Shown piece after piece: positions 18,778 to 42,291 of a DNA stretch of 64,000 nucleotides. Within the stretch, counting starts at the first letter, position 1. Each line of letters starts with the position of its first letter. Source of the DNA: Candidatus Eiseniibacteriota bacterium (GTDB taxonomy: Bacteria > Eisenbacteria > RBG-16-71-46); the NCBI GenBank assembly GCA_963717935.1, contig CAVQXP010000004.1, positions 1,152,001 through 1,216,000 on the forward strand. The letters run 5' to 3'. The notes under the pieces were generated by a model, which saw only the letters and a program-made list of their open reading frames with translations, did no database searches and was not told the DNA's origin. The translations under genes were made by a program, and so were the position numbers.

Positions 18778-20058
18778 ATGCACGATCTCAAGTTCCTGCG
18801 CAACCACCGTGAGCGCGTCGAGGCAGGCGTGGCCCTCAAGGGCATGACCGTGAACCTGGGGCGCTTCTACGAGATCGAGGAACGCCGCCTCGCGTTGCTG
18901 CACGAGAGCGAGCAGCTCAAGGCCCGGCGCAACGCGGTCACCCAGGAGGTCGGCGCGCGCCGGCAGTCCGGGCAATCGGCCGACGAGCTGATCGCGCAGA
19001 GCCGCGAGCTGGGCGAGCGCATCAAGCGGCTCGACGCGGAACTCAAGACGCTCGAGGAAGAGAGCGCCGAGCTGGCGGCGTGGATCCCCAACCTGCCGCA
19101 CGAGAGCACCCCGCCGGGCAAGGACACGGCGCAGAACCAGGTCAAGCGCACCTGGGGCGAGCTGGCGGCGTTCGGCTTCGAGGCGCAGCCGCACTGGGAC
19201 CTGGCCACGCGGCTCGGGCTGCTCGACTTCGCGCGGGCGCCCAAGATCTCGGGCTCGGGCTTCCTGCTCTTCACCGGGCGCGGCGCGCGTCTGGAGCGGG
19301 CGCTCATCAACTTCATGCTGGACTTCCACACCGTGCACCACGGCTACACCGAGGTCTCGGTGCCGCACGTGGTGCGGCGGGCGGCGCTGTTCGGCACCGG
19401 CCAGCTGCCCAAGCTGGAAGGCGACATGTACCACATCGGTGAGGACGATCTATTCCTGAACCCGACGGCCGAGGTGCCGGTCACCAACATCTACCGCGAC
19501 GAGATCCTCGAACCCGGCATGGTGCCCATGTACCTCACGGCCCACTGCGCCTCCTACCGGCGCGAGGCCGGCACCTACGGCGCGGACACGCGTGGCATGG
19601 TGCGCGTGCACCAGTTCGACAAGGTGGAGCTGGTCAAGATCGTGCCGCCGCAGACCAGCTACGATGAACACGAGAGGCTGGCGCGCGACGTGGCCGAGAT
19701 CTTCGAGGCGCTGGAGCTGCCTTACCGGCAGGTGCTGCTGTGCAGCGGCGACACGTCGTTCGCCGCGGCCAAGTGCTACGACTTCGAGGTCTGGGCGCCG
19801 GGCATCAAGGCCTGGCTCGAGTGCTCCTCGTGCTCGAACTTCGAGGACTTCCAGGCGCGCCGCATGAATCTGCGCTTCCGCCGCGAGGCGGGGGCGAAGG
19901 CCGAGCACCCGCACACGTTGAACGCCTCGGGCGTGGCGCTGCCGCGCACCTTCGCGGCACTGCTCGAGAACCACCAGACCGCGACGGGGACGGTGCGCAT
20001 CCCGTCCGCCCTGCGCCCGTACCTCGACGGCCTCGAGGAGATCGTGCCAGAGGGGTGA
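18778..20058 (+). CDS. serS: Serine--tRNA ligase
   Basis: N-terminal coiled coil, GTGQLPK, PTAEVP, R-EAG, RVHQFDKVE, SCSN, HTLN-SG. Confidence 0.97.
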   Translation: MHDLKFLRNHRERVEAGVALKGMTVNLGRFYEIEERRLALLHESEQLKARRNAVTQEVGARRQSGQSADELIAQSRELGERIKRLDAELKTLEEESAELAAWIPNLPHESTPPGKDTAQNQVKRTWGELAAFGFEAQPHWDLATRLGLLDFARAPKISGSGFLLFTGRGARLERALINFMLDFHTVHHGYTEVSVPHVVRRAALFGTGQLPKLEGDMYHIGEDDLFLNPTAEVPVTNIYRDEILEPGMVPMYLTAHCASYRREAGTYGADTRGMVRVHQFDKVELVKIVPPQTSYDEHERLARDVAEIFEALELPYRQVLLCSGDTSFAAAKCYDFEVWAPGIKAWLECSSCSNFEDFQARRMNLRFRREAGAKAEHPHTLNASGVALPRTFAALLENHQTATGTVRIPSALRPYLDGLEEIVPEG

Positions 20059-21359
20059 AACCGAGCCCGCCCCCGCCGCGGCCGCGGTTCCGCCGCACCG
20101 GTGCGCAGATCCTGCGCACGGCGGTGCTCCTGGGGAGCGTGCTGCTCGTGGTCTCGGTCTTCCTCTTCACCCACCAGACCATCCGGCGCCTGTCCGCGGA
20201 GGTCACGACCACCTCGCGGGTGCTGGCCCGCTTCCTCGCGCTCGCGACGTTCCCGGCCACGCATGACCCGGAGCTGCAGCGCATCACGCGCGAGGTCGTG
20301 AGCAGCCTCGATTTCCCCATCATCATCACGGACCCACAGGGCTTCCCGCGCGCCTGGCGCAAGACGGCGGTGCCGCCGGGGCTGGTGCCCGCCACCAGCG
20401 TCGACAGCCTGAGCGTGGGCCAGCCGGTCTCGCCGGTGATCCGCGCGCGCATCGAGCGCCTGCAGGCCGAGGTGGCGCGGCTCGACCGCCAGAACCCGCC
20501 GTTGCCGATGAAGCAGCCCGGCACGGGCGTGACGCTGGGTGCGGTGCACTACGGCGAGCCCGTCGTGCTGGACCTGCTGCGCTGGATGCCCTACGTCACC
20601 GTGGGCGGCGTGCTGCTGCTGCTCTCGCTCGGGCTCTGGGCGCTCGCCGGTCTGCGCATGGCCGAGAAGCGCACGATCTGGGTGGGCATGGCGCGCGAGA
20701 CGGCCCACCAGCTGGGCACGCCGCTCTCCTCGCTGATGGGCTGGGTGGAGCTCCTGCGCGCGCACGCCGAGGCCGCGCCGCCGGGCGCGGTGGTGCCCGT
20801 GGCGCGGGCCGAGCTGGAGGAGACGCTCACCGAGATGGAGCGCGACGTCGACCGGCTCAACAAGGTGGCGCAGCGCTTCAGCCACGTGGGTTCGGCGCCG
20901 CACCTGCAGCTGCAGGAGGTCGCGCCGGTGGTGCGCGAGGCGGTGCAGTACGTGCGCCGGCGCCTGCCCCACGACGAGGATCGGGTGGTGCTGCGCGAGC
21001 GCTACGAGGACGTGCCGCCCATCAACCTCAACCGCGAGCTGATCGAGTGGGCGCTCGAGAACCTGCTGCTGAACGCGATCTCTGCGCTGGACAAGACGCA
21101 TGGCGTGATCGAGGTCAAGATCGAACGCCGCAAGGAGAACGAGGCGGTCGAGATCGTGGTGCAGGACGACGGGCGCGGCATGACGCCGGCCGAGCAGGGC
21201 CGGGCCTTCGAGCCGGGCTACAGCACCAAGCACCGGGGTTGGGGCCTGGGGCTCGCGCTCGCGCGCCGCGTGGTGCAGGAATACCACGGCGGGAAGCTCT
21301 TCATCCGTCACAGCGCCCCGGGCCAGGGCACCACGATGGTGATGAGCTTCCCGACGTAG
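20055..21359 (+). CDS. Membrane sensor histidine kinase (PorY-like)
   Basis: Two TMs; H-box WVGMARETAHQLGTPLSSL; N-box WALENLLLNA; D-G-G, GYSTK, GWGLGL. Confidence 0.85.
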   Translation: MKPSPPPPRPRFRRTGAQILRTAVLLGSVLLVVSVFLFTHQTIRRLSAEVTTTSRVLARFLALATFPATHDPELQRITREVVSSLDFPIIITDPQGFPRAWRKTAVPPGLVPATSVDSLSVGQPVSPVIRARIERLQAEVARLDRQNPPLPMKQPGTGVTLGAVHYGEPVVLDLLRWMPYVTVGGVLLLLSLGLWALAGLRMAEKRTIWVGMARETAHQLGTPLSSLMGWVELLRAHAEAAPPGAVVPVARAELEETLTEMERDVDRLNKVAQRFSHVGSAPHLQLQEVAPVVREAVQYVRRRLPHDEDRVVLRERYEDVPPINLNRELIEWALENLLLNAISALDKTHGVIEVKIERRKENEAVEIVVQDDGRGMTPAEQGRAFEPGYSTKHRGWGLGLALARRVVQEYHGGKLFIRHSAPGQGTTMVMSFPT

Positions 21360-21366
21360 CTTCGGG

Positions 21367-22236
21367 CTAGAGTCCCTCCAGCCGGATCGAGCCGTCGCCG
21401 CAGCGCATCTCGAGCAGCGGGCCGCCGCCGTTCATGCGCCCCCGCAGCGTGTGCCGCCCGAATCGCCCCGAGGTCTCGACGGGCAGGCCCACCCACAGGC
21501 CGCCGTCTCCGGCATGCAGATCGAGGTCCGCGCGCAGCGTGGAGGGCACGCGGAGCGACATGTTGCCGTCGCCGCTGCGCAGGCTCCAGGCGGAGGCGAG
21601 GCGCGAGCCGTCGAGCGCGGTCGCCTCCACGCGTCCGTCGCTGGTGCTCACCTCGAGTTGGTCGAAGCGTCCCTCGAGCCGGAGGCCGCCGTCCCCGCTG
21701 TGGGCCTCGAGCGCCCCGTCGAGACCGGTGGCCCGGATGTGTCCGTCGCCGGTGCTGAGCGAGAGCCGGCCGCACAGGCCGTCGGCCTGGATGGCCCCGT
21801 CGCCGGAGTGGGCGCGGATCTCTCCCGAGAGCGGTGCGATCGTGATGGCCCCGTCGCCGGTCGAGACGTCGAGGTCGGCGTCGCGTGGCAGGCTGACGTC
21901 CACGCGGGTCGTGCGGGCCCCGAATCCGAAGTGGACGATGCGGCGCGGCTCGCGGACCTCGCACAGGACGCGGTCGCCGCTCTGCGAGGCGTCGACCGAG
22001 ACGCCTCGCGAGCCGATGGACCAGCCCCGCGTGGTGACGCGGATGCCCACGGCCGGGCGGTCCCAGGTCGCGACGTGGACGCTGGCGTCATCGGCCCGCA
22101 GGACGAGTGCGGGGCGCCCGGTGGTCGGGTAGGTCTTCTCCCACCGCGTGACGGCTGCGGGTCCCGCAAGGGCGGGGCTCCAGGCGGTGGCCAGGGCGAG
22201 GACGAGGACGGCGGCGGCAAGGCGAGGCATGGGCAT
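21367..22236 (-). CDS. Secreted DUF4097 (beta-strand repeat) protein
   Basis: Signal peptide; repeated (T/S)GDG-I-x units. Confidence 0.8.
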   Translation of the reverse strand: MPMPRLAAAVLVLALATAWSPALAGPAAVTRWEKTYPTTGRPALVLRADDASVHVATWDRPAVGIRVTTRGWSIGSRGVSVDASQSGDRVLCEVREPRRIVHFGFGARTTRVDVSLPRDADLDVSTGDGAITIAPLSGEIRAHSGDGAIQADGLCGRLSLSTGDGHIRATGLDGALEAHSGDGGLRLEGRFDQLEVSTSDGRVEATALDGSRLASAWSLRSGDGNMSLRVPSTLRADLDLHAGDGGLWVGLPVETSGRFGRHTLRGRMNGGGPLLEMRCGDGSIRLEGL

Positions 22237-22260
22237 TCCCTCCAGGGTGACGATCCCTAC

Positions 22261-22287
22261 TACGGAGGGAGACGGGGGTGGGTTGCA
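22261..22287 (-). promoter_or_regulatory. ECF-type promoter TGCAAC-N17-CGTA for the DUF4097 gene
   Basis: Minus strand reads TGCAACccacccccgtctccctcCGTA. Confidence 0.65.
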
Positions 22288-22297
22288 GGAACCGGGG

Positions 22298-23347
22298 CTA
22301 CCGCCCCGCCACCCCGTACGCCATCGGTCGGTTGGCGGCCACGCCCCAGCCGGTGCGATCCACCGCGATGAGCCCCACGTCCCAGCGCTCCGGGAACATG
22401 GCCACGGCTTCCTGGACCGCCTGCTTCGCGGGCACGCCCGCAGCCAGCCGCTCGTAGACCGAGCGCGCCAGGAAACGCCGGATGATCTGCTCGCCCTCGC
22501 CGGTGCAGGCCACCGCGCCGGCCGGGCCGGCGCAGAGCCCGGCGCCGTAGACCGGCACGTCGCCCACGCGGCCGCAGAGCGTCACCGAGGTGCCGCCGGT
22601 GGAGAGCGCGGCGGCGAAGTGCCCGTCCGCGTCGCGCGTGACCGAGCCCACGGTGTCGCCGTGCCTGCCCCACTCGAGCACGTCGGCGGGCATCGCGCCG
22701 GGGAAGTTCCAGTAGCGCCGCCAGTCGAAGACCGTGGTGTCGCGGCGGGTGAACAACTCGGCCTGGCGCCTCATGCGGGCGCGGTACTTGGCCTCGGCCT
22801 GCGGGCTCACGGGCACGATGTCGGCGAAGCCGATCCGGTGGGCGAAGCGGGTCGCGCCCTCGCCCACGAGGAACAGGTGGGGAGTGGAGTCCATGACCGC
22901 GCGCGCCACCCGCACCGGGTTCTTCACGCGCTCGATCGCTCCGACCGCGGCGAAGCGGCCCTCGTCGGTCATGACCGCGGCGTCCATCTGGAGGGTGTGC
23001 CCGTCCAGCCGGATGTTGGCACCGGTGCCGGCATTGAAGCGCGGATCGTCCTCGAGCCACACGGTGCCCGCGACCGCAGCGTCGAGCGCGGAGCCGCGCG
23101 CGACCAGCACGGCGAGCGCCGTGTCGGCCGCGGCGCGCACGCCGTCCGCGTACTCGGGCCCCGAGCCGGCCCCGCCGTGCGTGACCACGAGCGCTCCGCC
23201 ACCGGTGCCGCCGGCGAGCGTGGGCAGGGGCGCGGGGGCCAGCAGGACGACGGGGGCGGGGTCGCGGGTCTGGGCGCTGGCGGAAGCGCCGGCGGGGAGC
23301 AGCGCAAGGATCAGCAGGCCGGTGCGGGTGGATCGGCTGGGTCTCAT
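22298..23347 (-). CDS. Isoaspartyl peptidase/L-asparaginase (Ntn hydrolase) with a predicted signal peptide
   Basis: HGGAG, LEDDP-FNAG, MDA, VKNP, D/TVG autocleavage site, STGG, GRVGD, TG-GE. Confidence 0.85.
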   Translation of the reverse strand: MRPSRSTRTGLLILALLPAGASASAQTRDPAPVVLLAPAPLPTLAGGTGGGALVVTHGGAGSGPEYADGVRAAADTALAVLVARGSALDAAVAGTVWLEDDPRFNAGTGANIRLDGHTLQMDAAVMTDEGRFAAVGAIERVKNPVRVARAVMDSTPHLFLVGEGATRFAHRIGFADIVPVSPQAEAKYRARMRRQAELFTRRDTTVFDWRRYWNFPGAMPADVLEWGRHGDTVGSVTRDADGHFAAALSTGGTSVTLCGRVGDVPVYGAGLCAGPAGAVACTGEGEQIIRRFLARSVYERLAAGVPAKQAVQEAVAMFPERWDVGLIAVDRTGWGVAANRPMAYGVAGR

Positions 23348-23558
23348 CACTCTTCCTCCTGGTGCCGGACCTGGCGTGGACGGTGGCCCGCGCCACGTTA
23401 GGACGTTGTCAGCGCCGGGGTCAACGGCCGCGTCGGCCCGCGTTGGCGCTCCGGCGCCCCGGCGCTATGATGCCGCTGTTCCCCGCACCCGACACGCGCC
23501 CTGCGGTGTATGCAGCATGGGGTGCCCCGCCCCCCCCAGGCCCGAGATGGACGACCGC

Positions 23559-25127
23559 ATGGAAGAGCCCCGCAAACGCATCCTCTGGGCCGACGACGAG
23601 ATCGACCTGCTGCGGCCCCACGTCAAGTTCCTCGAGCAGAAGGGCTTCGCGGTGACGGCGGTGCCCAACGGTGAGGACGCGCTCGCCGAGCTCGAGCGCG
23701 CCCACTACGACCTGGTGCTGCTCGACGAGATGATGCCCGGGCTCGGGGGGCTGGACACCCTCGGGCAGATCAAGGCGCGCAGCCTCGACGTGCCGGTCGT
23801 GCTCGTCACCAAGAGCGAGGAGGAGTCGCTCATGAACGAGGCGCTGGGGCAGCACATCACCGACTACCTCATCAAGCCGGTCAACGCCTCGCAGGTCTTC
23901 CTGGCGTGCAAGCGGGTCTTCGACGCGCAGAGCCTGCAGGACACCCAGCGCGCGCGCGACTACGTGGGCGAGATGCAGCGCTGGCAGGGGCTCGACCTGC
24001 GCCGCCTCGACTGGCCGGGCTGGGTGGACCTGGCGCAGGACGTGGCGCGCTGGGACGTGCGCTTCGACGGCGTGGCCGACGCCGGGCTGCGGCAGGCGCA
24101 CGCCGACTTCCGGCGCAGCCTCAACATCGACTTCGGGCGCTACGTCGAGGAGAACTACCCGCACTGGGTGCGCGACGCCGCGGACCGCCCGCCGCTCTCG
24201 ACCGACGTGGTGGCGCGCGCGCTCGTGCCGCACCTGCAGGCCGGGCGGCGCGTGTTCTTCGTCATCATCGACTGCATGCGTCTGGACCAGTGGTTCTCGC
24301 TCGAGCCGCTGCTCGAGGAGCTGTTCACGGTCCAGCGCGACTACTACTGCTCGATCCTGCCGACCGCCACGCCCTACTCGCGCAACGCCATCTTCTCGGG
24401 CCTGCTGCCGGCGCAGCTCAAGCAACAGCACCCCGACCTGTGGCAGGAGGGCACCGACGACGAGCGCACCAAGAACCGCTTCGAGCGCCAGTTGCTCGAG
24501 GCGCAACTGGCGCGCCTGACACCGGGCCAGGAGAAGCCGGTCAAGTACATCAAGATCTACGACCAGAACGAGGCCCTGGCCACGCGCCGGCAGATCAACT
24601 CGTTCAGCGGGCTGCCGCTGGTGAGCATGGTGTTCAACTTCCTCGACATCCTGGCGCATGGCCGCTCGGAGAGCGACATCCTGCAGGAGTTGGCGCCCGA
24701 TGAGGCCGCCTTCCGCGCGGTCACGAAGGCGTGGTTCGTGCACAGCCCGCTCTACGACATCTTCCGCGCTCTCTCCACCCAGGACGTCACCGTGGTGTTG
24801 ACCACCGACCACGGCGCGGTGCTCGGGCGGCGGGCGGCGCTGGTCTATGGCAACCGCGACACCTCGACCAACCTGCGTTACAAGTTCGGGATCAACCTGA
24901 ACTGCGACGCGAAGCAGGCGGTCATCATCCGCCGGCCGATGGACTACATGCTCCCCGACGAGGGCGTGAACAAGAACTACGTGCTGGCGCGCGAGGACTT
25001 CTACTTCGTGTACCCGACGCGCTTCCACGAGTTCGAGCGCCAGTACCGCGGGTCGTTCCAGCACGGCGGCATCTCGGTCGAGGAGATGATCCTGCCGCTG
25101 CTGACGCTGACCCCCCGCACGCCGTGA
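23559..25127 (+). CDS. PorX-like response regulator: receiver domain plus PglZ/alkaline-phosphatase domain
   Basis: ILWADDEIDLL, LDEMMPG, TKSEEE, DYLIKP; IDCMRLDQW, SILPTAT-YSRNAIF-GL, NFLD-L-H, TTDHG, FQHGGIS-EEM. Confidence 0.88.
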   Translation: MEEPRKRILWADDEIDLLRPHVKFLEQKGFAVTAVPNGEDALAELERAHYDLVLLDEMMPGLGGLDTLGQIKARSLDVPVVLVTKSEEESLMNEALGQHITDYLIKPVNASQVFLACKRVFDAQSLQDTQRARDYVGEMQRWQGLDLRRLDWPGWVDLAQDVARWDVRFDGVADAGLRQAHADFRRSLNIDFGRYVEENYPHWVRDAADRPPLSTDVVARALVPHLQAGRRVFFVIIDCMRLDQWFSLEPLLEELFTVQRDYYCSILPTATPYSRNAIFSGLLPAQLKQQHPDLWQEGTDDERTKNRFERQLLEAQLARLTPGQEKPVKYIKIYDQNEALATRRQINSFSGLPLVSMVFNFLDILAHGRSESDILQELAPDEAAFRAVTKAWFVHSPLYDIFRALSTQDVTVVLTTDHGAVLGRRAALVYGNRDTSTNLRYKFGINLNCDAKQAVIIRRPMDYMLPDEGVNKNYVLAREDFYFVYPTRFHEFERQYRGSFQHGGISVEEMILPLLTLTPRTP

Positions 25128-32685: not shown

Positions 32686-32758
32686 GACTTCCGCGCGCGA
32701 TCCCGCAGCCGAGCGGCGCATCCAACCATCAACGGCCGCGCCCTCACCTGTGGGAACC

Positions 32759-35121
<2,363 letters not shown>

Positions 35122-35125
<4 letters not shown>

Positions 35126-35283
35126 CGGGTCTCGGCCGCCTGATCGTGACCGTGCTCGGCCTGGGCCTGATCGTGGCCGTGAACCTGTACTTCTTCGCCC
35201 GGCCGCGGGACGGACGCCGGAAGCCGGTGATGCAGCCGGAGCGTGCCGGGGAGACCGGGGCGGGGCCCGCCGACCAGGCTTGA
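35122..35283 (+). CDS. Small single-TM protein coupled to copA
   Basis: ATGA overlap with the copA stop; [19 protein letters not shown]. Confidence 0.55.
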
Positions 35284-35332
35284 CCGGGCCGGGACAAGAA
35301 CCTCCTCCCCCCGCGCCAGCATCCAAGCAGCC

Positions 35333-35773
35333 ATGCGCCCGCCCGCCTTCCTCCTTCGTCGCGCCCTGACCGCGATCCTGGCGGTCAGCCCGCTCGTCGC
35401 GAGCGCCGACCTCTGCACCGTCGGCGCGCTCACGGGACGCGCGGAGCTGGCGTGCTCGATGGAGCCCGGCGCGCCCGCCTGCCGGGTGGCGCCTGCGCCG
35501 AAATGTTCGCACTGCGCTCCGGCAGCCCCGGCGCGCGAGACCGCGCGTTCGCACGGTCCGACCTGTTGCGACTTGCGCCCGCAGGCCGCGGCCGTGGCCG
35601 GGCAGCCGATGCTCGCCGCGCCGCTGCCGATCGCGCATCCCGCGGTGGTTTCGGCGGTCGTGGCCCCCGGCGTCGTCACGGCGTCAGCGGTCCGTGTTGC
35701 GCCCGACGACGGCCGCGCTCCTCCGGGCGACGTCCCGGCCCCCCTCTCTCCCCGCGCTCCTCCGCTCGCCTAG
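35333..35773 (+). CDS. Cys-rich exported leader peptide ending in RAPP (CruR/CutF/DUF2946-like arrest peptide)
   Basis: Signal-like N-terminus, 7 Cys including CSHC and CC, C-terminus GRAPPGDVPAPLSPRAPPLA-stop, upstream of cusCBA. Confidence 0.75.
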   Translation: MRPPAFLLRRALTAILAVSPLVASADLCTVGALTGRAELACSMEPGAPACRVAPAPKCSHCAPAAPARETARSHGPTCCDLRPQAAAVAGQPMLAAPLPIAHPAVVSAVVAPGVVTASAVRVAPDDGRAPPGDVPAPLSPRAPPLA

Positions 35774-35905
35774 TCTCCAGCCGTCCCCCGGGTCTCGACC
35801 TTCATCGGGCCCGGCCCGCGCGCATCCTGCGCTCGGGGTCCCTGCGGCCTTCGCGTGCCCTGCAGAGCGCAGCGCACCGCGGGGCCCGGCGAGAGGAGTG
35901 ACGTC

Positions 35906-37204
35906 ATGAGCCCACGTACGGCGCTGCTCGCCGTGCTGCTCGTCCTGGCCGGCGTCCGGCCGGCGCTGGCGCTCGAGCTCGAGAGCGCGCTGCGCGAGGA
36001 CGGGCGGATCGCGCCGTCTCCGGACGAGCTCGCCGCGCTGGCGCTCCAGCGCGCTCCCTCCCTGGCGGCGCTCGCGGCGCGCGTCCAGGAGGCGCGGGAG
36101 ATGGTGCGGCCGGCCGGGGCGCTTCCCAACCCGATGGTCGAGCTCATGATCCAGGACATCGGCTTCCCCAGGTGGACCGTCGGCGAAGAGGGCATGTCGA
36201 TGATCGGCCCGCAGGTCACCCAGGGCATCCCCTTCCCGGGCAAGCGCGGCGCCCGCCGGCGGGCCGCGCAGGCAGACGTCACCGTGAAGGCGAGCGAGCT
36301 CGAGCTGCTCCGGAGGGAGGTGGCCCTCGACATCCGGAGGCTCTGCGCCCGGCTCTATGCGCTCGACCAGGAACAGCAGGCGCTTTCCTCCGGACACGAG
36401 CTGCTCGAGATGCTGGCGGCCACGGTGCGGGAACGTTACAGCGCCGGCGTGGCGGAGCAGGAAGCCGCGATCAAGGCGCAACTCGCGGTATCGCGGCTGG
36501 ACGAGCGGCTGGACGACCTGGTCGCGGAACGCAGGGCCCTGGTGGCCTCCGTGAACCGGTACCTGGACCAGCCGGGCGACGCACCGCTCGGACGCGTGAC
36601 GACATTGCCCGAGCCAGGCGCGCCGCCCACGCCCTGGGAGGCCGTCGTCATGGAGAACTCCCCCGAGATCGTCCTGCGCCGGGCCGAAGTGCAGGCTGCG
36701 GAGCGCAGACTCCGGGTGGCCCGGCTGGAGCTCAGGCCCGACCTCCTCGTCGGCGCGGGTCTTGGCTTCCGGGGCGGCAAGGACCCGGCCGTCACGCTCC
36801 GGCTGGGCATGGACCTGCCCCTCTGGAGCGCGCAGCGGCAGATGCCCATGTTCCGCGCGGCTGGACAGGACCTCGAGGCGTCACGTCAGGTGCTGCGCGA
36901 CGCCGAAGCCCGGGCGCGGGCCGAGACGGCGCGTCTGGAGGCGGACTGGCGGAGAGCGGCCAGACAGGTGACGCGCTACGCGCAGGCCATCGTGCCCCGG
37001 AGCAGCCTGGCGCTCGATGCGGCGCGCTCCAGCTACCTCGTGGGCCGGGGTGACTTCTCCGCGGTCATCGAGGACTTCAACCTGTGGCTCGAGGCCCGGA
37101 CCGGGCTGGCCCGGCGCGAAGCCGAGCGCTTCACGACGTGGGCCGAGCTGCAGGCCATCATCGGCTCGAGCGGTCCCGGAGACGACGGCAGGAGGGGACG
37201 ATGA
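35906..37204 (+). CDS. TolC-family outer-membrane efflux protein (CusC/CzcC-like)
   Basis: GAGAGGAG RBS, signal peptide, LPNP, PFPGKR, two OEP-like halves. Confidence 0.85.
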   Translation: MSPRTALLAVLLVLAGVRPALALELESALREDGRIAPSPDELAALALQRAPSLAALAARVQEAREMVRPAGALPNPMVELMIQDIGFPRWTVGEEGMSMIGPQVTQGIPFPGKRGARRRAAQADVTVKASELELLRREVALDIRRLCARLYALDQEQQALSSGHELLEMLAATVRERYSAGVAEQEAAIKAQLAVSRLDERLDDLVAERRALVASVNRYLDQPGDAPLGRVTTLPEPGAPPTPWEAVVMENSPEIVLRRAEVQAAERRLRVARLELRPDLLVGAGLGFRGGKDPAVTLRLGMDLPLWSAQRQMPMFRAAGQDLEASRQVLRDAEARARAETARLEADWRRAARQVTRYAQAIVPRSSLALDAARSSYLVGRGDFSAVIEDFNLWLEARTGLARREAERFTTWAELQAIIGSSGPGDDGRRGR

Positions 37205-38679
37205 TCCATCTCGAACGAAGGACCCGGCGACGGAGGTTGTCGCTCGTCCCTCTCGCGGTCGGGCTCCTGGCGATCGGGCTCCTGGCGATCGGGACGCTGG
37301 CGGCCGGCTGCGGCAGGAACAGCGGCAGCGGCAAGACCGGCAGCCAGCAGCAGCAGCAGTACCACTGCCCCATGCATCCGACCTACGTGACCGACCGGCC
37401 GGGAGACTGCCCCATCTGCGGGATGAAGCTCGTGCCGATCGGACCGAAGGAGCCGAAGGTCCCTGCCGGGCCGTCCGCCCCGGCGGGCGCTGCGACCGCG
37501 GCCGCCGGGGCGCGCCGGATCCTCCACTACCGGAACCCGATGGACCCGTCGGTCACGTCGCCGGTGCCGATGAAGGACCCGATGGGGATGGACTACGTGC
37601 CGGTCTACTCGGACGAGGTGCCCGCGGGCGCCGGCGTGGAAGGCCATGCCCCGGTGGAAGTGAGTCCCGAGGAGTCGGGACTCGCCGGCCTTCGGACCAC
37701 CGTGGCCCGAAGGGGAACGCTGGCTCGCGCCATCCGCACGGTCGGTGAGGTCAAGGCCGACGAGACGCGGGTCAGCAAGGTGCACTCCAAGATCTCGGGG
37801 TGGGCCGAGCGGCTGTTCGTCAGCTTCACCGGCCAGGCCGTCCGCAAGGGCCAGCCGCTGCTGAGCATCTACTCCCCCGAACTGCTGGCGACCCAGGAGG
37901 AGTTCCTGCGCGCGCGCGAATCGGCGGCGCGGTTCGCGCAGAACGACATGCCCGAGGTGCGGCGTGGCGGCGCGGATCTGCTGGAGGCGGCGCGACGGCG
38001 GCTCCTGCTGTTCGACGTGCCGCAGAGCTTCATCGACACGCTGGAGAGGACGGGACAGCCGCAACGCGCGGTCACGCTCGAGGCCCCCGCCTCGGGCTTC
38101 GTCACCGCGAAGGACGTCTTCGCGGGCGCCCGGATCGAACCCGGTGTCACGCTGTTCACGATCACCGACCTGTCGAAGGTCTGGGTCGAGGGTGAGGTCT
38201 ACGAATACGAGGCCCCGCTCGTCCGGCTCGGACAGAAGGCCCGGGTCACGCTCGCCTACGACCCGTCGAGGGCATACACGGGACGGATCCGTTACATCTA
38301 CCCGTACCTGAACACGGACACCCGCACGCTTCGGGTCCGCTTCGAGTTCGACAACCCCGGCCTGGCCCTGAAGCCCGGCATGTACGTCGACGTCGAGCTC
38401 GACGCGCAGGTGGTCCAGGGCGTCCTGGTCCCCGAGGCGTCCATCCTGGACACCGGCCCCCGGCAGATCGTCTACGTGATGACGGGCGAGGGGCGCTACG
38501 AGCCGCGCGAGGTGACCATCGGGCTCCGGAGCGGCGGCACGGCGCAGGTCCTCTCGGGGGTGAAGGCGGGCGAGGTGGTCGTGGACCGGGCCAACTTCCT
38601 GCTCGATTCGGAGTCCCGCCTCCGGGCCGCCATCGGGCGCTCGGCCGTCGCCGACACCGCCGGAAGTGGCGCGCGATGA
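37201..38679 (+). CDS. cusB: RND periplasmic adaptor, CusB-like, with heavy-metal-binding domains
   Basis: YHCPMHP...CPICGMKLV, YRNPMDP...KDPMGMDY, V-KGQPL-IYSPEL, LKPGM, FLLDSES. Confidence 0.88.
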   Translation: MIHLERRTRRRRLSLVPLAVGLLAIGLLAIGTLAAGCGRNSGSGKTGSQQQQQYHCPMHPTYVTDRPGDCPICGMKLVPIGPKEPKVPAGPSAPAGAATAAAGARRILHYRNPMDPSVTSPVPMKDPMGMDYVPVYSDEVPAGAGVEGHAPVEVSPEESGLAGLRTTVARRGTLARAIRTVGEVKADETRVSKVHSKISGWAERLFVSFTGQAVRKGQPLLSIYSPELLATQEEFLRARESAARFAQNDMPEVRRGGADLLEAARRRLLLFDVPQSFIDTLERTGQPQRAVTLEAPASGFVTAKDVFAGARIEPGVTLFTITDLSKVWVEGEVYEYEAPLVRLGQKARVTLAYDPSRAYTGRIRYIYPYLNTDTRTLRVRFEFDNPGLALKPGMYVDVELDAQVVQGVLVPEASILDTGPRQIVYVMTGEGRYEPREVTIGLRSGGTAQVLSGVKAGEVVVDRANFLLDSESRLRAAIGRSAVADTAGSGAR

Positions 38680-41600
38680 TCCAGAAGATCATCGAGTTCT
38701 CGGCCCGGAACCGCCTGCTCGTGCTGCTGGGCGTGGCGGCGCTCTGCGTCTTCGCGTTCTACACCCTGAAGCAGATCCGGCTCGACGCGCTGCCCGATCT
38801 CTCCGACACCCAGGTCATCGTCTACTCGCGCTGGGACAGGTCCCCCGACATCATCGAGGATCAGGTCACCTATCCCGTCGTCACGGCGCTGCTGGGGGCG
38901 CCTCGCGTCAAGGCGGTTCGCGGCTTCTCGGACTTCGGCTACTCCTTCGTCTACGTGATCTTCCAGGATGGCACCGATCTCTACTGGGCGCGCTCCCGGG
39001 TTCTGGAGTACCTGTCCAAGATCCAGGCGCGGCTCCCGGAGGGCGTGCACACCGAACTCGGGCCGGACGCGACGGGGGTGGGCTGGGTCTTCCAGTACGC
39101 CCTGGTCGACCGTTCCGGCAAGCACTCGCTCGACCAGCTCCGCTCGTACCAGGACTGGACGCTCCGCTACGCGCTCCAGATGGTGCCCGGTGTCGCCGAG
39201 GTGGCCTCCATCGGCGGCTACGTCAAGCAGTATCAGATCACCGTGGACCCCGACCGGCTCGCCGCGTTCGGCCTGCCACTCTCCACCGTGGTCGAGGCCA
39301 TCCGGAACTCCAACAGCGAGGTCGGCGGCCGGCTCATCGAGTGGAGCGGCACGGAGTACATGGTGCGGGGCCGCGGCTACTCGAAGAGCGTCGAGGACTT
39401 CGGAAGCATCGTCGTGAAGACCGGCGAGGGTGGCGTGCCGGTGCTCCTGAGGGACGTGGCGCGGGTCGGCCTGGGTCCCGAGATCCGCCGCGGCGTGTCC
39501 GACCTGGATGGGATGGGCGATCACGTCGGCGGCATCGTGGTCATGCGCCACGGTGAGAACGCCCTGAACGTGATCAAGCGGGTCAAGGAGAGGCTCCACG
39601 ATCTCGGGCCGTCGCTTCCCGCAGGGGTGGAGATCGTCACCACCTACGACCGGGCGGACCTCGTCACCCGGGCCATCGGGACGCTGAAGCACGAGCTGTC
39701 GATCGAGATGATCATCGTCTCGCTGGTCATCCTGCTCTTTCTCTGGCACATCCCGTCGGCCATCGTGCCCATCCTGACCATCCCCATCGCGGTGCTCCTG
39801 TCCTTCATCCCGCTCTTCTACTTCGGCGTCTCCGTCAACATCATGTCCCTGGCCGGCATCGCGATCTCGATCGGCGTGCTGGTGGACGGGGCCATCGTCG
39901 AGGTGGAGAACGCCTACAACAAGCTCCATCTCTGGAACGCCGGCGGCCGGAAGGGCGACTTCCACGCCGTCCGGCTCGAGGCGCTCAAGGAGGTGGGGCC
40001 GGCGGTCTTCTTCTCGCTGCTGGTCGTCGCGGTGTCGTTCCTTCCCATCTTCGCCCTGGTGGACCAGGAAGGGCGGCTGTTCAAGCCGCTGGCCTACTCG
40101 AAGAACCTGACCATGGCGCTGGCGGCGTTCCTGGCCATCACCCTCGATCCGGCCATGCGGATGATGTTCACCCGCATGGACCCGTTCGTCTTCAAGCCCC
40201 GATTCCTGGCCCGGCTCGCCAGCCACGCCTTCGTGGGCACCTACCATTCCGAGGAGAAGCACCCCATCAGTCGCGCCATCTCCAGGGTGTACGACCCCGC
40301 CTGCCGCTGGGTCCTGCGGCGCCCCCGGACGACCATCCTGATCGCCGTCGCGATCGTCGCCGTGAGCATCCCCGCCTATTTCAGGCTCGGCTCGGAGTTC
40401 ATGCCCCCGCTCAACGAAGGCACGATCCTCTACATGCCGACGACCCTGCCCGGGATCGCGGTGGCCGAGGCCCAGGCGCTCCTGCAGACCCAGGACCGGG
40501 TCCTCAAGTCGTTCCCCGAGGTGGAACGGGTCTTCGGCAAGGCGGGCCGCGCCGAGACCTCCACCGACCCCGCGCCCTTCTCGATGATGGAGACGACGGT
40601 GATCCTGAAGCCGCCGCAGGAGTGGCGTGGCAAGGAACGCTGGTATTCCTCCTGGGCGCCCGGCTGGCTCAGGGGATTCCTCCGCCCCATCTGGCCCGAC
40701 CGGATCTCGTGGGATGAGCTGGTCGAGGAGATGGACCGGAAGCTGCAGATCCCGGGCGTGACCAACGCCTGGACCATGCCGATCAAGGCCCGCACCGACA
40801 TGCTGACGACCGGGGTCCGCACCCCGATCGGGATCAAGATCTTCGGCTCGGATCTCGGGGAGATCGAGAAGCTGGGTGGCCAGCTCGAGGGCCTGATGCG
40901 GCAGGTGCCCGGCACCCGCAGCGTCTACGCCGAGCGGGTGACCGGCGGCTACTTCCTCGACTTCGAGCCCCGGCGGGACCGGCTCGCCCGCTACGGGCTC
41001 ACCATCGCGGATGTCCAGAGGGTGCTCATGTCGGCCGTGGGCGGCGAGAACGTGACCACCACCATCGAGGGCCGTGAACGCTACCCGGTCAACGTGCGCT
41101 ACCCCCGGGAGCTCCGGGACAACGTGGACCGTCTGCGAAGGGTCCTGGTGAAGACCCCCGCGGGACCGCAGGTGCCGCTGGCCCAGCTCGCCGACATCGA
41201 GCTGGTCAGCGGGCCGGCGATGATCCGGGACGAGAACGGCTTCATGGCGGGCTACGTCTACGTGGACATGACCGGCCGGGACATCGGCGGCTACGTGAAG
41301 GAGGCCAGGAAGCTCGTCCGGGAGAAGCTGACTCTGCCCCCCGGCTATGCGCTGCAGTGGAGCGGCCAGTACGAGAACATGATCCGCGTGAGCCGACGGC
41401 TCAAGGTCGTCGTGCCCATCACGCTGGTGCTGATCTTCGTACTGCTGTTCGCCAACACCCGCTCGGCGTTCAAGACGCTGGTCGTGATGCTGGCCGTGCC
41501 GTTCTCCGCCGTGGGCGCCATCTGGCTCTTCCACTTCCTGGGCTACAACGTGTCCATCGCGGCGTGGGTGGGGATGATCGCGCTCCTGGGCCTGGATGCG

Positions 41601-41930
41601 GAGACGGGCGTGTTCATGCTGCTCTTCCTGGACCTCTCCTACGACGAGTACCGCAGGAAAGGGCTGCTGCGGACCCTGGCCGATCTGGACGAGGCCATCC
41701 TGCACGGGGCGGTCAAGCGGGCGCGACCCAAGATGATGACCGTCTTCGCCGCCTTCATGGGCCTGCTCCCCATCATGTGGTCGACGTCGGCCGGGGCGGA
41801 CGTGATGAAGCGGATCGCCGCGCCCATGATCGGCGGCCTGGTCACGTCGTTCCTGCTCGAGCTGCTGGTCTACCCGGCGATCTACAAGCTCTGGAAGCTG
41901 AGGACGGAACTGAAGGGGCTCACCCCATGA
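38676..41930 (+). CDS. cusA: CusA/CzcA heavy-metal RND efflux transporter
   Basis: DALPDLSD-QV, ELGPDATGVGW, MSLAGIAI-IG-VDGAIV-VEN, EFMPPL-EG, MKRIAAPM-GG. Confidence 0.93.
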   Translation: MIQKIIEFSARNRLLVLLGVAALCVFAFYTLKQIRLDALPDLSDTQVIVYSRWDRSPDIIEDQVTYPVVTALLGAPRVKAVRGFSDFGYSFVYVIFQDGTDLYWARSRVLEYLSKIQARLPEGVHTELGPDATGVGWVFQYALVDRSGKHSLDQLRSYQDWTLRYALQMVPGVAEVASIGGYVKQYQITVDPDRLAAFGLPLSTVVEAIRNSNSEVGGRLIEWSGTEYMVRGRGYSKSVEDFGSIVVKTGEGGVPVLLRDVARVGLGPEIRRGVSDLDGMGDHVGGIVVMRHGENALNVIKRVKERLHDLGPSLPAGVEIVTTYDRADLVTRAIGTLKHELSIEMIIVSLVILLFLWHIPSAIVPILTIPIAVLLSFIPLFYFGVSVNIMSLAGIAISIGVLVDGAIVEVENAYNKLHLWNAGGRKGDFHAVRLEALKEVGPAVFFSLLVVAVSFLPIFALVDQEGRLFKPLAYSKNLTMALAAFLAITLDPAMRMMFTRMDPFVFKPRFLARLASHAFVGTYHSEEKHPISRAISRVYDPACRWVLRRPRTTILIAVAIVAVSIPAYFRLGSEFMPPLNEGTILYMPTTLPGIAVAEAQALLQTQDRVLKSFPEVERVFGKAGRAETSTDPAPFSMMETTVILKPPQEWRGKERWYSSWAPGWLRGFLRPIWPDRISWDELVEEMDRKLQIPGVTNAWTMPIKARTDMLTTGVRTPIGIKIFGSDLGEIEKLGGQLEGLMRQVPGTRSVYAERVTGGYFLDFEPRRDRLARYGLTIADVQRVLMSAVGGENVTTTIEGRERYPVNVRYPRELRDNVDRLRRVLVKTPAGPQVPLAQLADIELVSGPAMIRDENGFMAGYVYVDMTGRDIGGYVKEARKLVREKLTLPPGYALQWSGQYENMIRVSRRLKVVVPITLVLIFVLLFANTRSAFKTLVVMLAVPFSAVGAIWLFHFLGYNVSIAAWVGMIALLGLDAETGVFMLLFLDLSYDEYRRKGLLRTLADLDEAILHGAVKRARPKMMTVFAAFMGLLPIMWSTSAGADVMKRIAAPMIGGLVTSFLLELLVYPAIYKLWKLRTELKGLTP

Positions 41931-41946: not shown

Positions 41947-42291
41947 ATGAAGATGAACACGAGGACCTTGGCGACGGCCGCGTTGCTGATGCTGGCGGTG
42001 GGTTGCTCGAGCGCGGGTGCGGCCCGCGAACAGCGTGTGAAGATCGCGGTGACCGAGAAGGGCTTCGAGCCGGCCTCCGTGACGGTGCAGTCGGGCCGGC
42101 CCGTCACGCTGCTCGTCACGCGCCGGACCGATCACACCTGCGCGACCGGGCTCGTGCTCAAGACGCACGGCATCGACCAGAAGCTGCCACTGGGGAAGAC
42201 GGTGGCCATCCGCTTCACGCCCGAGCGGCCCGGCGAGCTGACCTATGCCTGCCCGATGGACATGTACCACGGGAAGATCGTGGTGCGGTGA
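41947..42291 (+). CDS. Exported cupredoxin-domain protein (possible lipoprotein)
   Basis: GAGGAGG RBS, LAVGC, GFEP-V-V-G-PV-L...C...YACPMDMYHG. Confidence 0.8.
   Translation: MKMNTRTLATAALLMLAVGCSSAGAAREQRVKIAVTEKGFEPASVTVQSGRPVTLLVTRRTDHTCATGLVLKTHGIDQKLPLGKTVAIRFTPERPGELTYACPMDMYHGKIVVR

Follow-up and report, generated by a model that had tools for sequence, protein, structure and literature searches.

A 64,000-nucleotide stretch of the genome of Candidatus Eiseniibacteriota bacterium (contig CAVQXP010000004.1 of assembly GCA_963717935.1, positions 1,152,001 to 1,216,000; hereafter the window) contains an open reading frame (ORF), P0001, directly upstream of genes for a Cus-like efflux system composed of an outer-membrane efflux protein (OEP), a membrane fusion protein (MFP) and a pump of the resistance-nodulation-division (RND) type. 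We found that P0001 is a conserved protein-coding gene with a signal-like N-terminus, a Cys-rich stretch and a linker modelled with low confidence and without predicted structure, followed by an Arg-Ala-Pro-Pro (RAPP) motif at its C-terminus. The interpretation that we favour, with moderate confidence, is that P0001 is a leader of the nascent-peptide metal-sensor kind, resembling CruR and CutF, which gates translation of the OEP-MFP-RND operon. The leader is real, conserved and probably regulatory, and is of the known kind of metal-sensing arrest peptides. At the same time its family is distinct, with its own sensor region, a longer ruler between Cys residues and RAPP, a second PP/RAPP site, and an anti-Shine-Dalgarno (anti-SD) sequence within the arrest codons. 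A first-pass annotation of this DNA had viewed the ORF as a copper-sensing ribosome-arrest leader. The picture of a conserved, exported-looking, Cys-rich ORF with an invariant terminal RAPP directly 5' of a Cus-like operon held, whereas the idea that the efflux target is unusual did not, and the suggested search against the family DUF2946 was negative.

Homologues of P0001 were gathered as 68 proteins of 139-194 amino acids (aa), all unnamed (E<=0.01, 928 candidates); the length typical of the family is about 146-148 aa. Two alignments were used, A1, comprising 38 of the 68 homologues, and A4, comprising 31 sequences with distant relatives included. The leader and its parts are as follows.

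35333..35773, plus strand: leader ORF P0001, translated to 146 aa plus a TAG stop.
35333..35407, plus strand: export signal, residues 1-25, with a basic n-region, a hydrophobic core and A-x-A ahead of D26, kept in A1 and A4.
35414..35569, plus strand: Cys-rich, presumed metal-sensing region (C28, C41, C50, C58-x-x-C61, C78-C79), recognized by Cys conservation.
35714..35725, plus strand: first RAPP, R128-P131, 13 codons (39 nt) 5' of the second RAPP.
35753..35764, plus strand: terminal RAPP, R141-P144, the presumed arrest site, coded CGC GCT CCT CCG and conserved in A1 and A4.

Translation of 35333-35773 gave the 146-aa product with seven Cys residues and a doubled RAPP in its tail, just as the first-pass annotation had described. 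The Cys residues are found at positions 28, 41, 50, 58, 61, 78 and 79, and the tail reads DG-RAPP-GDVPAPLSP-RAPP-LA-stop, with the RAPP motifs corresponding to residues 128-131 and 141-144. The export signal of P0001 was read by eye from the alignments. In the AlphaFold2 (AF2) model of the protein, helices were present only at residues 4-23 and 27-34, with no regular secondary structure past residue 34, and the confidence of the model was low (mean predicted local distance difference test score (pLDDT) 63.5, predicted template modelling score (pTM) 0.22).

In A1, residues C28, C41, C61, C78, C79, P130, P131 and R141-A142-P143-P144 were invariant, and C58 was nearly so (at least 90%). The conservation of RAPP and Cys residues in orthologues, on which the earlier interpretation had been made to depend, was borne out in this alignment for the terminal RAPP and for most of the Cys residues. 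C28, C78 and the terminal RAPP remained invariant in A4, where C41 and C58 were conserved in at least 90%. A profile search against 1.84 billion representative proteins (50% identity) returned 18 matches at E<=0.001. In the distant relatives, the signal, C28, C41, C58 and the CC pair are retained; an xPP is present about 13 residues from the end, and the C-terminal motif has the form RAPP-[LQ]-x. Among 206 Eisenbacteria genomes, the leader gene was detected in 6 with the narrow profile A1 and in 36, representing 22 of 83 genera, with the broader profile A4; within the window's own family, A4 detected it in 31 of 88 genomes. Samples containing these organisms come from freshwater sediment or wetland. 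None of the Pfam and NCBIfam models recognizes the family. Distances were counted in 129 distinct sequences, which include many close kin. The terminal RAPP is located 2 residues from the stop in 124 of them and 3 residues away in the remaining 5. From the CC pair to the terminal RAPP, the distance is 57-65 residues in 127, with a mode of 61, and the corresponding mode for the CxxC (C58-x-x-C61) is 79 residues, the CxxC being missing in 25 of the 129. In P0001 the distance from CC to the first RAPP, counted on the translation, is 48 residues.

A terminal RAPP by itself is not beyond chance in the host genome. In this genome of 72% G+C, RAPP plus 0-4 residues closes 40 stop-to-stop frames with a length of 60 codons or more, nearly all of them off-frame. 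We judged the leader to be a real gene because it is conserved across homologues. The ratio of nonsynonymous to synonymous substitution rates (dN/dS) in the family had a median of 0.52 (105 pairs), and the Cys codons vary between TGC and TGT beneath invariant Cys residues. The G+C content at third codon positions (GC3) of the leader is 0.857, which is gene-like, in a window of 72.4% G+C. We also examined the gene at its locus in other genomes, using a first set of 26 fetched loci, 23 with a complete 3' end and about 17 distinct in sequence, and a second set of 24 further loci from other genera. The leader stop is TAG in 20 of the 23 loci; taking into account that TAG is common in the genome, closing 239 of 646 long ORFs, and that the loci are related, we consider this unremarkable. 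At the other end of the gene, most homologues carry AAGGAG just 2 nt 5' of the ATG. The segment preceding the leader in the window (35293-35332) carries a degenerate form, AAGCAG, with a CCUCC-rich stretch just 5', and initiation of the leader here may be poor.

Of the 23 first-set loci, 22 have RAPP as the terminal motif and one (L015) has RGPP. The 24 second-set loci comprise 20 with RAPP, three with RSPP and one (L064) with EWPP. In the second set, the terminal RAPP makes use of each of the four Ala codons and, at Pro143, of each of the four Pro codons, and the first RAPP in the core clade is encoded with Ala codons GCT (7), GCC (5), GCG (2) and GCA (1) and with all four Pro codons. This synonymous variation at both sites indicates that the RAPP peptide is under selection. 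The tandem RAPP pointed out in the first-pass annotation is real, but a true double RAPP is confined to the core clade; elsewhere the first site reads ESPP, GPPP, GQPP, HDPP and similar, and deeper relatives keep an xPP about 13 codons 5' of the terminal RAPP. The upstream PP/RAPP site is probably a first pause. RAPP and RGPP have been reported to be robust stallers refractory to elongation factor P (EF-P), with RSPP partially permissive, and RAPP-like motifs to be under strong exclusion from the proteomes of bacteria with the exception of arrest peptides; in CruR, toeprinting placed the arrest at a point where two Pro codons occupy the P and A sites (PMC12992588). The main text of this source makes no mention of efflux, TolC, Shine-Dalgarno, or tandem or two RAPP.

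The codons of the terminal RAPP bear a second relationship, to the next gene's Shine-Dalgarno (SD) sequence. The elements concerned are listed below; folds were obtained as minimum free energy (MFE), partition-function and RNAalifold structures.

35755..35770, plus strand: anti-SD arm, codons 142-146, pairing with 35888-35900 in the MFE, partition-function and RNAalifold folds.
35774..35905, plus strand: intergenic region of 132 nt with three hairpins in the folds (35788-35814, 35816-35836 and 35845-35887).
35888..35900, plus strand: SD arm, with the SD GAGAGGAG at 35891-35898, 7 nt 5' of the OEP ATG.
35906..37204, plus strand: OEP gene (CusC/TolC-like), the gene proposed to be regulated (Pfam OEP, E 5.8e-33).

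The sequence GAGAGGAG[C/T]GA stands ahead of the OEP ATG in 14 core-clade members of 16 distinct aligned sequences, L004 and L005 being variants. The intergenic region is 126-134 nt long in the 14 core loci and has no match in Rfam. Within the terminal RAPP, coded CGC GCT CCT CCN, 5'-CGCUCCUC-3' exactly complements 5'-GAGGAGCG-3'. GCT and CCT are rare codons, accounting for 9 of 482 Ala codons (1.9%) and 7 of 248 Pro codons (2.8%) in seven neighbouring genes. In the leaders, however, 15 of 16 Ala codons at position 142 are GCT, and all 17 distinct ORFs have CCT as codon 143. Pairing with the SD explains the conservation of these two rare codons. When each locus was folded alone, the SD was paired with the RAPP-to-stop codons with P>=0.74 in 15 of 17 loci, including L004, L005 and L006 with their intergenic regions of 247, 184 and 164 nt, compared to about 132 nt. 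RNAalifold on the 14 core sequences gave the same long-range helix around the three hairpins, which themselves show a few compensatory changes. For the second set, folding was attempted with 20 loci and an SD-preceded OEP start was found in 17; pairing was at least 0.5 in 11 of these 17 distant loci, and in L070 the anti-SD is shifted into the last two codons. In-silico synonymous recoding of codons 142-143 to preferred codons lowered the median pairing from 0.99 to 0.26. The RAPP-Leu-x codons are thus predicted to base-pair with the SD of the OEP gene.

We then considered how a ribosome positioned on these codons would affect the SD. With the ribosome footprint masked at Pro143, the median unpaired probability of the SD rose from 0.00 to 0.19, and with a second footprint masked at the upstream site it was 0.34. 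When the RNA 3' of the stalled ribosome was folded alone, the value was 0.37. These folding predictions go in the expected direction but are weak, dealing with the thermodynamics of a very G+C-rich RNA. For the SD of L001, L003, L009 and L012, the GCU-CCU codons of the first RAPP itself serve as the back-up partner. The hairpin at 35816-35836 and its homologues display a conserved AUCCU in the loop, and when the RNA 3' of a stalled ribosome is folded, this loop becomes an alternative partner of the SD in several loci; it may act as a weak second anti-SD.

On the basis of these features, we propose the following mechanism. The ribosome would arrest when Pro143 occupies the P site and Pro144 the A site, the configuration toeprinted for CruR. 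The footprint of the stalled ribosome would then cover the whole anti-SD arm at 35755-35770, so that the OEP gene's ribosome-binding site is freed and the pump is translated. After release of the arrest and termination, the long-range helix would re-form and the OEP site would be shut. The contention in the first-pass annotation that the leader controls the pump thus receives support in part, as the mRNA is predicted to be laid out in such a way that a RAPP-held ribosome would uncover the OEP site. By analogy with CutF, the Cys motifs of a chain tethered at RAPP would already be exported, and copper or another thiophilic metal bound to the Cys residues would block the folding or pulling that releases the arrest. 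Metal would thereby hold the arrest, and the exporter would be turned on. The sign of the metal response is argued here solely from the target being an exporter.

The gene neighbourhood is consistent with a leader that belongs to the pump. The genes flanking the leader and OEP genes are the following.

32750-35125, plus strand: copA (Pfam E1-E2 ATPase, HMA).
35122-35283, plus strand: 53-aa membrane ORF between copA and the leader, overlapping the copA stop.
37201-38679, plus strand: CusB-like MFP with HMBD (Pfam HlyD_D23 6.5e-78, HMBD 4.7e-12).
38676-41930, plus strand: CusA-like RND pump (Pfam ACR_tran 1.5e-215), whose start overlaps the MFP gene.
41947..42291, plus strand: cupredoxin-like protein, the last gene of the operon (Pfam Cupredoxin_1 1.5e-19).

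Pfam therefore confirmed the location of the leader between copA and tolC-cusB-cusA-cupredoxin as read in the first pass, with the amendment that a conserved 53-aa ORF also lies between copA and the leader. In the first set, the OEP gene comes next after the leader in 21 of the 23 loci (20 by tblastn and L006 by Pfam). As for the exceptions, the next gene in L023 is probably OEP, as read from its N-terminus, and in L024 it is a cupredoxin gene. OEP is next in 20 of the 24 second-set loci, and two of the other four have less than 330 nt of downstream DNA. The distance from leader to OEP is 116-383 nt. As copA is upstream of the leader in none of the 24 second-set loci and OEP is still next, the leader travels with the pump and not with copA. 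No metal regulator was present among the 15 gene-like ORFs scanned in the region 16.3-55.8 kb of the window and no CsoR in the genome, which agrees with the earlier observation that the cluster has no CueR, CsoR or CusRS gene; the genome's two MerR_1 genes are about 1 Mb away. The Pfam scan revealed no CusF gene in the operon. A sigma-70 promoter scan gave nothing, and a terminator scan placed two sites within copA and none close to the leader, but such a scan is uninformative for the phylum Eisenbacteria.

Among the neighbouring genes, the 53-aa ORF at 35122-35283 consists of a single helix, and its ATG overlaps the copA stop (ATGA). It is kept after copA in most core loci (tblastn) and belongs to no Pfam or NCBIfam family. 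Its placement resembles that of the small CcoS/FixS proteins, which follow CcoI-type copper ATPases; the Pfam scan was negative. The cupredoxin gene is found upstream of the leader in L005 and directly downstream, at about 300 nt, in L024; taken together with its position in the window, this indicates that its location within the cluster is fluid. Farther away, 8-15 kb 5' of copA, positions 19740-25124 encode a histidine kinase and a response-regulator-PglZ protein. The kinase and the PglZ protein are without a DNA-binding domain and have no evident tie to the copper cluster.

The leader was then compared with known arrest peptides. CruR (Bp2923) from Bordetella pertussis is the prototype of Pfam DUF2946 (PF11162); copper relieves its arrest, upon which Rho terminates transcription before a TonB-dependent importer gene, and members of DUF2946 follow a rule in which CXXC and RAPP are separated by 45 residues, plus or minus one or two (PMC9426467). 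CruR and the leader are alike in size (about 145 aa), in their export signal and CXXC, in a RAPP 2-3 residues from the stop, in a poorly structured chain and long intergenic region, in the copper-homeostasis genes downstream, and in that the distance from the Cys motif to RAPP is conserved. C58-x-x-C61 provides the CXXC and the C-terminus provides the RAPP expected of DUF2946. In contrast, the spacing in the leader is 79 residues from the CXXC or 61 from the CC instead of 45, the leader has seven Cys residues including a CC pair and also a second PP/RAPP site, its target is an exporter while that of CruR is a TonB-dependent importer, and the mRNA here points to masking of the SD and not to Rho. 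In the ESM Atlas, the nearest clusters are unnamed; in the best named cluster (score 0.94) 23% of members are DUF2946, which we take as a lead only. No PF11162 match was found on pMOL30 of C. metallidurans.

CutF from Rhodobacter capsulatus stalls with copper, and the stall melts a stem-loop that hides the SD of cutO (PMC9973294; bioRxiv 10.1101/2025.02.05.636593). Like CutF, the leader has fewer than 150 aa, a Sec-type signal (here read by eye), presumably periplasmic Cys residues and a Pro-rich C-terminus, which stalls in CutF and presumably does so in the leader. In CutF, a downstream stem-loop hides the SD of the next gene and copper turns a detoxification gene on; in our loci a shielding of the SD is predicted (15 of 17 and 11 of 17 loci in the two sets), and OEP lies downstream. 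The two differ in that the CutF stall depends on EF-P, with PPP and CxxxC, whereas the motif of the leader is RAPP, reported to be EF-P-refractory. In addition, the anti-SD of the leader lies inside the arrest codons themselves, and the phylum is Eisenbacteria. The OEP genes of RND systems are described as the most frequent downstream neighbours of CutF-like genes (PMC9973294), so that the efflux target, held to be unusual in the first-pass annotation, is the commonest one.

ApdA/ApdP and SecM (the latter with RAGP) are RAPP-type arrest peptides that monitor Sec/YidC activity and precede sec genes. ApdA/ApdP share with the leader a C-terminal RAPP and the character of a small exported protein upstream of a regulated gene, and SecM resembles it in freeing the masked SD of secA. 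Unlike ApdA/ApdP, the leader has a Cys sensor of the metal type and lies ahead of an operon for metal efflux; it is followed by OEP and not by sec or yidC genes. Other Eisenbacteria possess leaders of the canonical DUF2946-like type (L030-L048), which share with our leader the phylum and the RAPP-x-x-stop ending. They differ in having HHH...CxxC with a 44-46-residue spacing (counted by hand in four sequences), in being shorter and in their downstream genes. An hhalign comparison of A4 with 8 of the DUF2946-like leaders of the same phylum aligned the last 23 columns only (probability 24.7%, E 7.9e-4), and homology over the whole protein was not detected by this method. SD-tail pairing is predicted in 3 of six canonical leaders. 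The canonical leaders themselves appeared as sub-threshold PF11162 matches in 22 of the 206 genomes. L030, L033, L041, L042, L046, L047 and L048 show a membrane helix, HHH...CxxC, the 44-46 residues and RAPP-x-x-stop, and the genes after leaders of this type encode secreted proteins, several of them beginning ...AAAQT...SSLFSNLANPS or ...NPDISVIGQP.

Several results weigh against a CruR/CutF-like sensor that gates the pump through its SD. PF11162, the search suggested in the first pass, matched neither P0001 (E<=1), nor the 38 members and 17 distant representatives (E<=10), nor the six-frame translation of the genome, and the Cys-to-RAPP spacing departs from the DUF2946 rule. The logic of CruR is opposite to that proposed here, as copper relieves its arrest and acts via Rho. 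The pairing is not universal, being 0.49 in L016 and 0.00 in L015, the locus with the RGPP variant, and below 0.5 in 6 of the 17 distant loci. Covariation was absent from the anti-SD helix in the RNAalifold analysis, both arms being invariant in the core clade, and the fold as a whole (z = -0.42) was no stabler than shuffled sequences, the RNA being G+C-rich. In the folds predicted with a masked footprint, the SD remains mostly paired, to other C/U-rich stretches. Finally, the core-clade leader comes 50 nt after copA and the small ORF and so may not be first in its transcript.

A more elaborate form of the proposal, which we consider speculative and rather unlikely, is a transmembrane RAPP metal switch operated by two ribosomes, in which full opening of the pump site needs both RAPP sites to be occupied. 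The 61-residue ruler, 16 residues longer than the 45 of CruR, would position the last pair of Cys residues, when arrest sets in, at the mouth of SecYEG on the periplasmic side, and the leader would therefore read periplasmic and not cytoplasmic metal. The site 39 nt upstream would park a trailing ribosome just short of collision; rescue triggered by collision would thereby be avoided, and the back-up anti-SD sequences would be covered as well.

Among the other explanations, the one that fares best, although we think it improbable, is that leader and pump are translationally coupled but respond to a signal other than copper. This could be Ag, Cd or Zn, the thiol-redox or disulfide capacity of the periplasm, Sec activity, or no signal at all, with constitutive coupling. 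Translation of the leader alone would suffice to open the helix that sequesters the SD, and Pfam matches alone assign no metal to heavy-metal efflux (HME)-RND pumps of this type. RAPP-containing upstream ORFs (uORFs) are also reported to precede Dsb and thioredoxin genes (PMC12992588). On the other hand, the operon has a copper flavour, with a copA carrying HMA, a CusB-type HMBD and a cupredoxin, and the invariant Cys residues and the conserved 61-residue distance to RAPP are hard to explain if nothing is sensed.

To a slightly lesser degree still, attenuation of the CruR type could be considered. In this case a RAPP-stalled ribosome would shield the transcript from Rho, metal would alter the stall time, and control would be exerted on transcription into OEP instead of initiation of its translation. 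CruR, the best-studied RAPP copper leader, is reported to use Rho attenuation with an intergenic region of 162 nt, and the region here measures 132 nt and in the window is somewhat rich in C (C 0.42, G 0.35). C and G are, however, near balance in most loci, and a tight fold with three conserved hairpins is predicted for the intergenic region, while Rho loading needs unstructured RNA. Moreover, pairing with the SD already accounts for the conserved rare codons, and the logic of CruR, in which copper shuts down the operon, would not suit an exporter unless inverted.

It is less probable again, and in our view quite unlikely, that the product of the leader is chiefly a periplasmic metal-binding protein standing in for CusF, with RAPP having no regulatory role. 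An export signal together with seven Cys residues, in an operon in which a CusF gene was not seen, would fit such a function, but the AF2 model is of low confidence and has no predicted fold. The reported exclusion of RAPP-like motifs from proteomes, save for arrest peptides (PMC12992588), also stands against it, and the fixed RAPP 2-3 residues from the stop, the RGPP and RSPP substitutes and the pairing with the SD would be left unexplained. The notion that the leader is a chance frame in G+C-rich DNA, kept as RNA only, can practically be set aside: many chance frames of the genome do end in RAPP and the nucleotide sequence of the last codons is conserved in the core clade, but this is contradicted by synonymous variation under invariant Cys, PP and RAPP, by a conserved length of about 146-148 aa and by a gene-like GC3.

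If the leader does act as a CruR/CutF-like sensor gating the pump operon, metal sensing by nascent peptides would reach an uncultured phylum and a leader family that lies outside the Pfam and NCBIfam models. It would also represent a clear case in which arrest codons form an anti-Shine-Dalgarno element, fixed by rare codons. As the anti-SD lies within the arrest codons, synonymous recoding would separate the effect of the peptide from that of the RNA. The ruler of 61 versus 45 residues provides a handle on where the nascent chain senses metal, a point that the CruR and CutF papers leave open. Leaders of this kind may be recognizable in unannotated genomes whose efflux genes show no transcriptional copper regulator in their vicinity.

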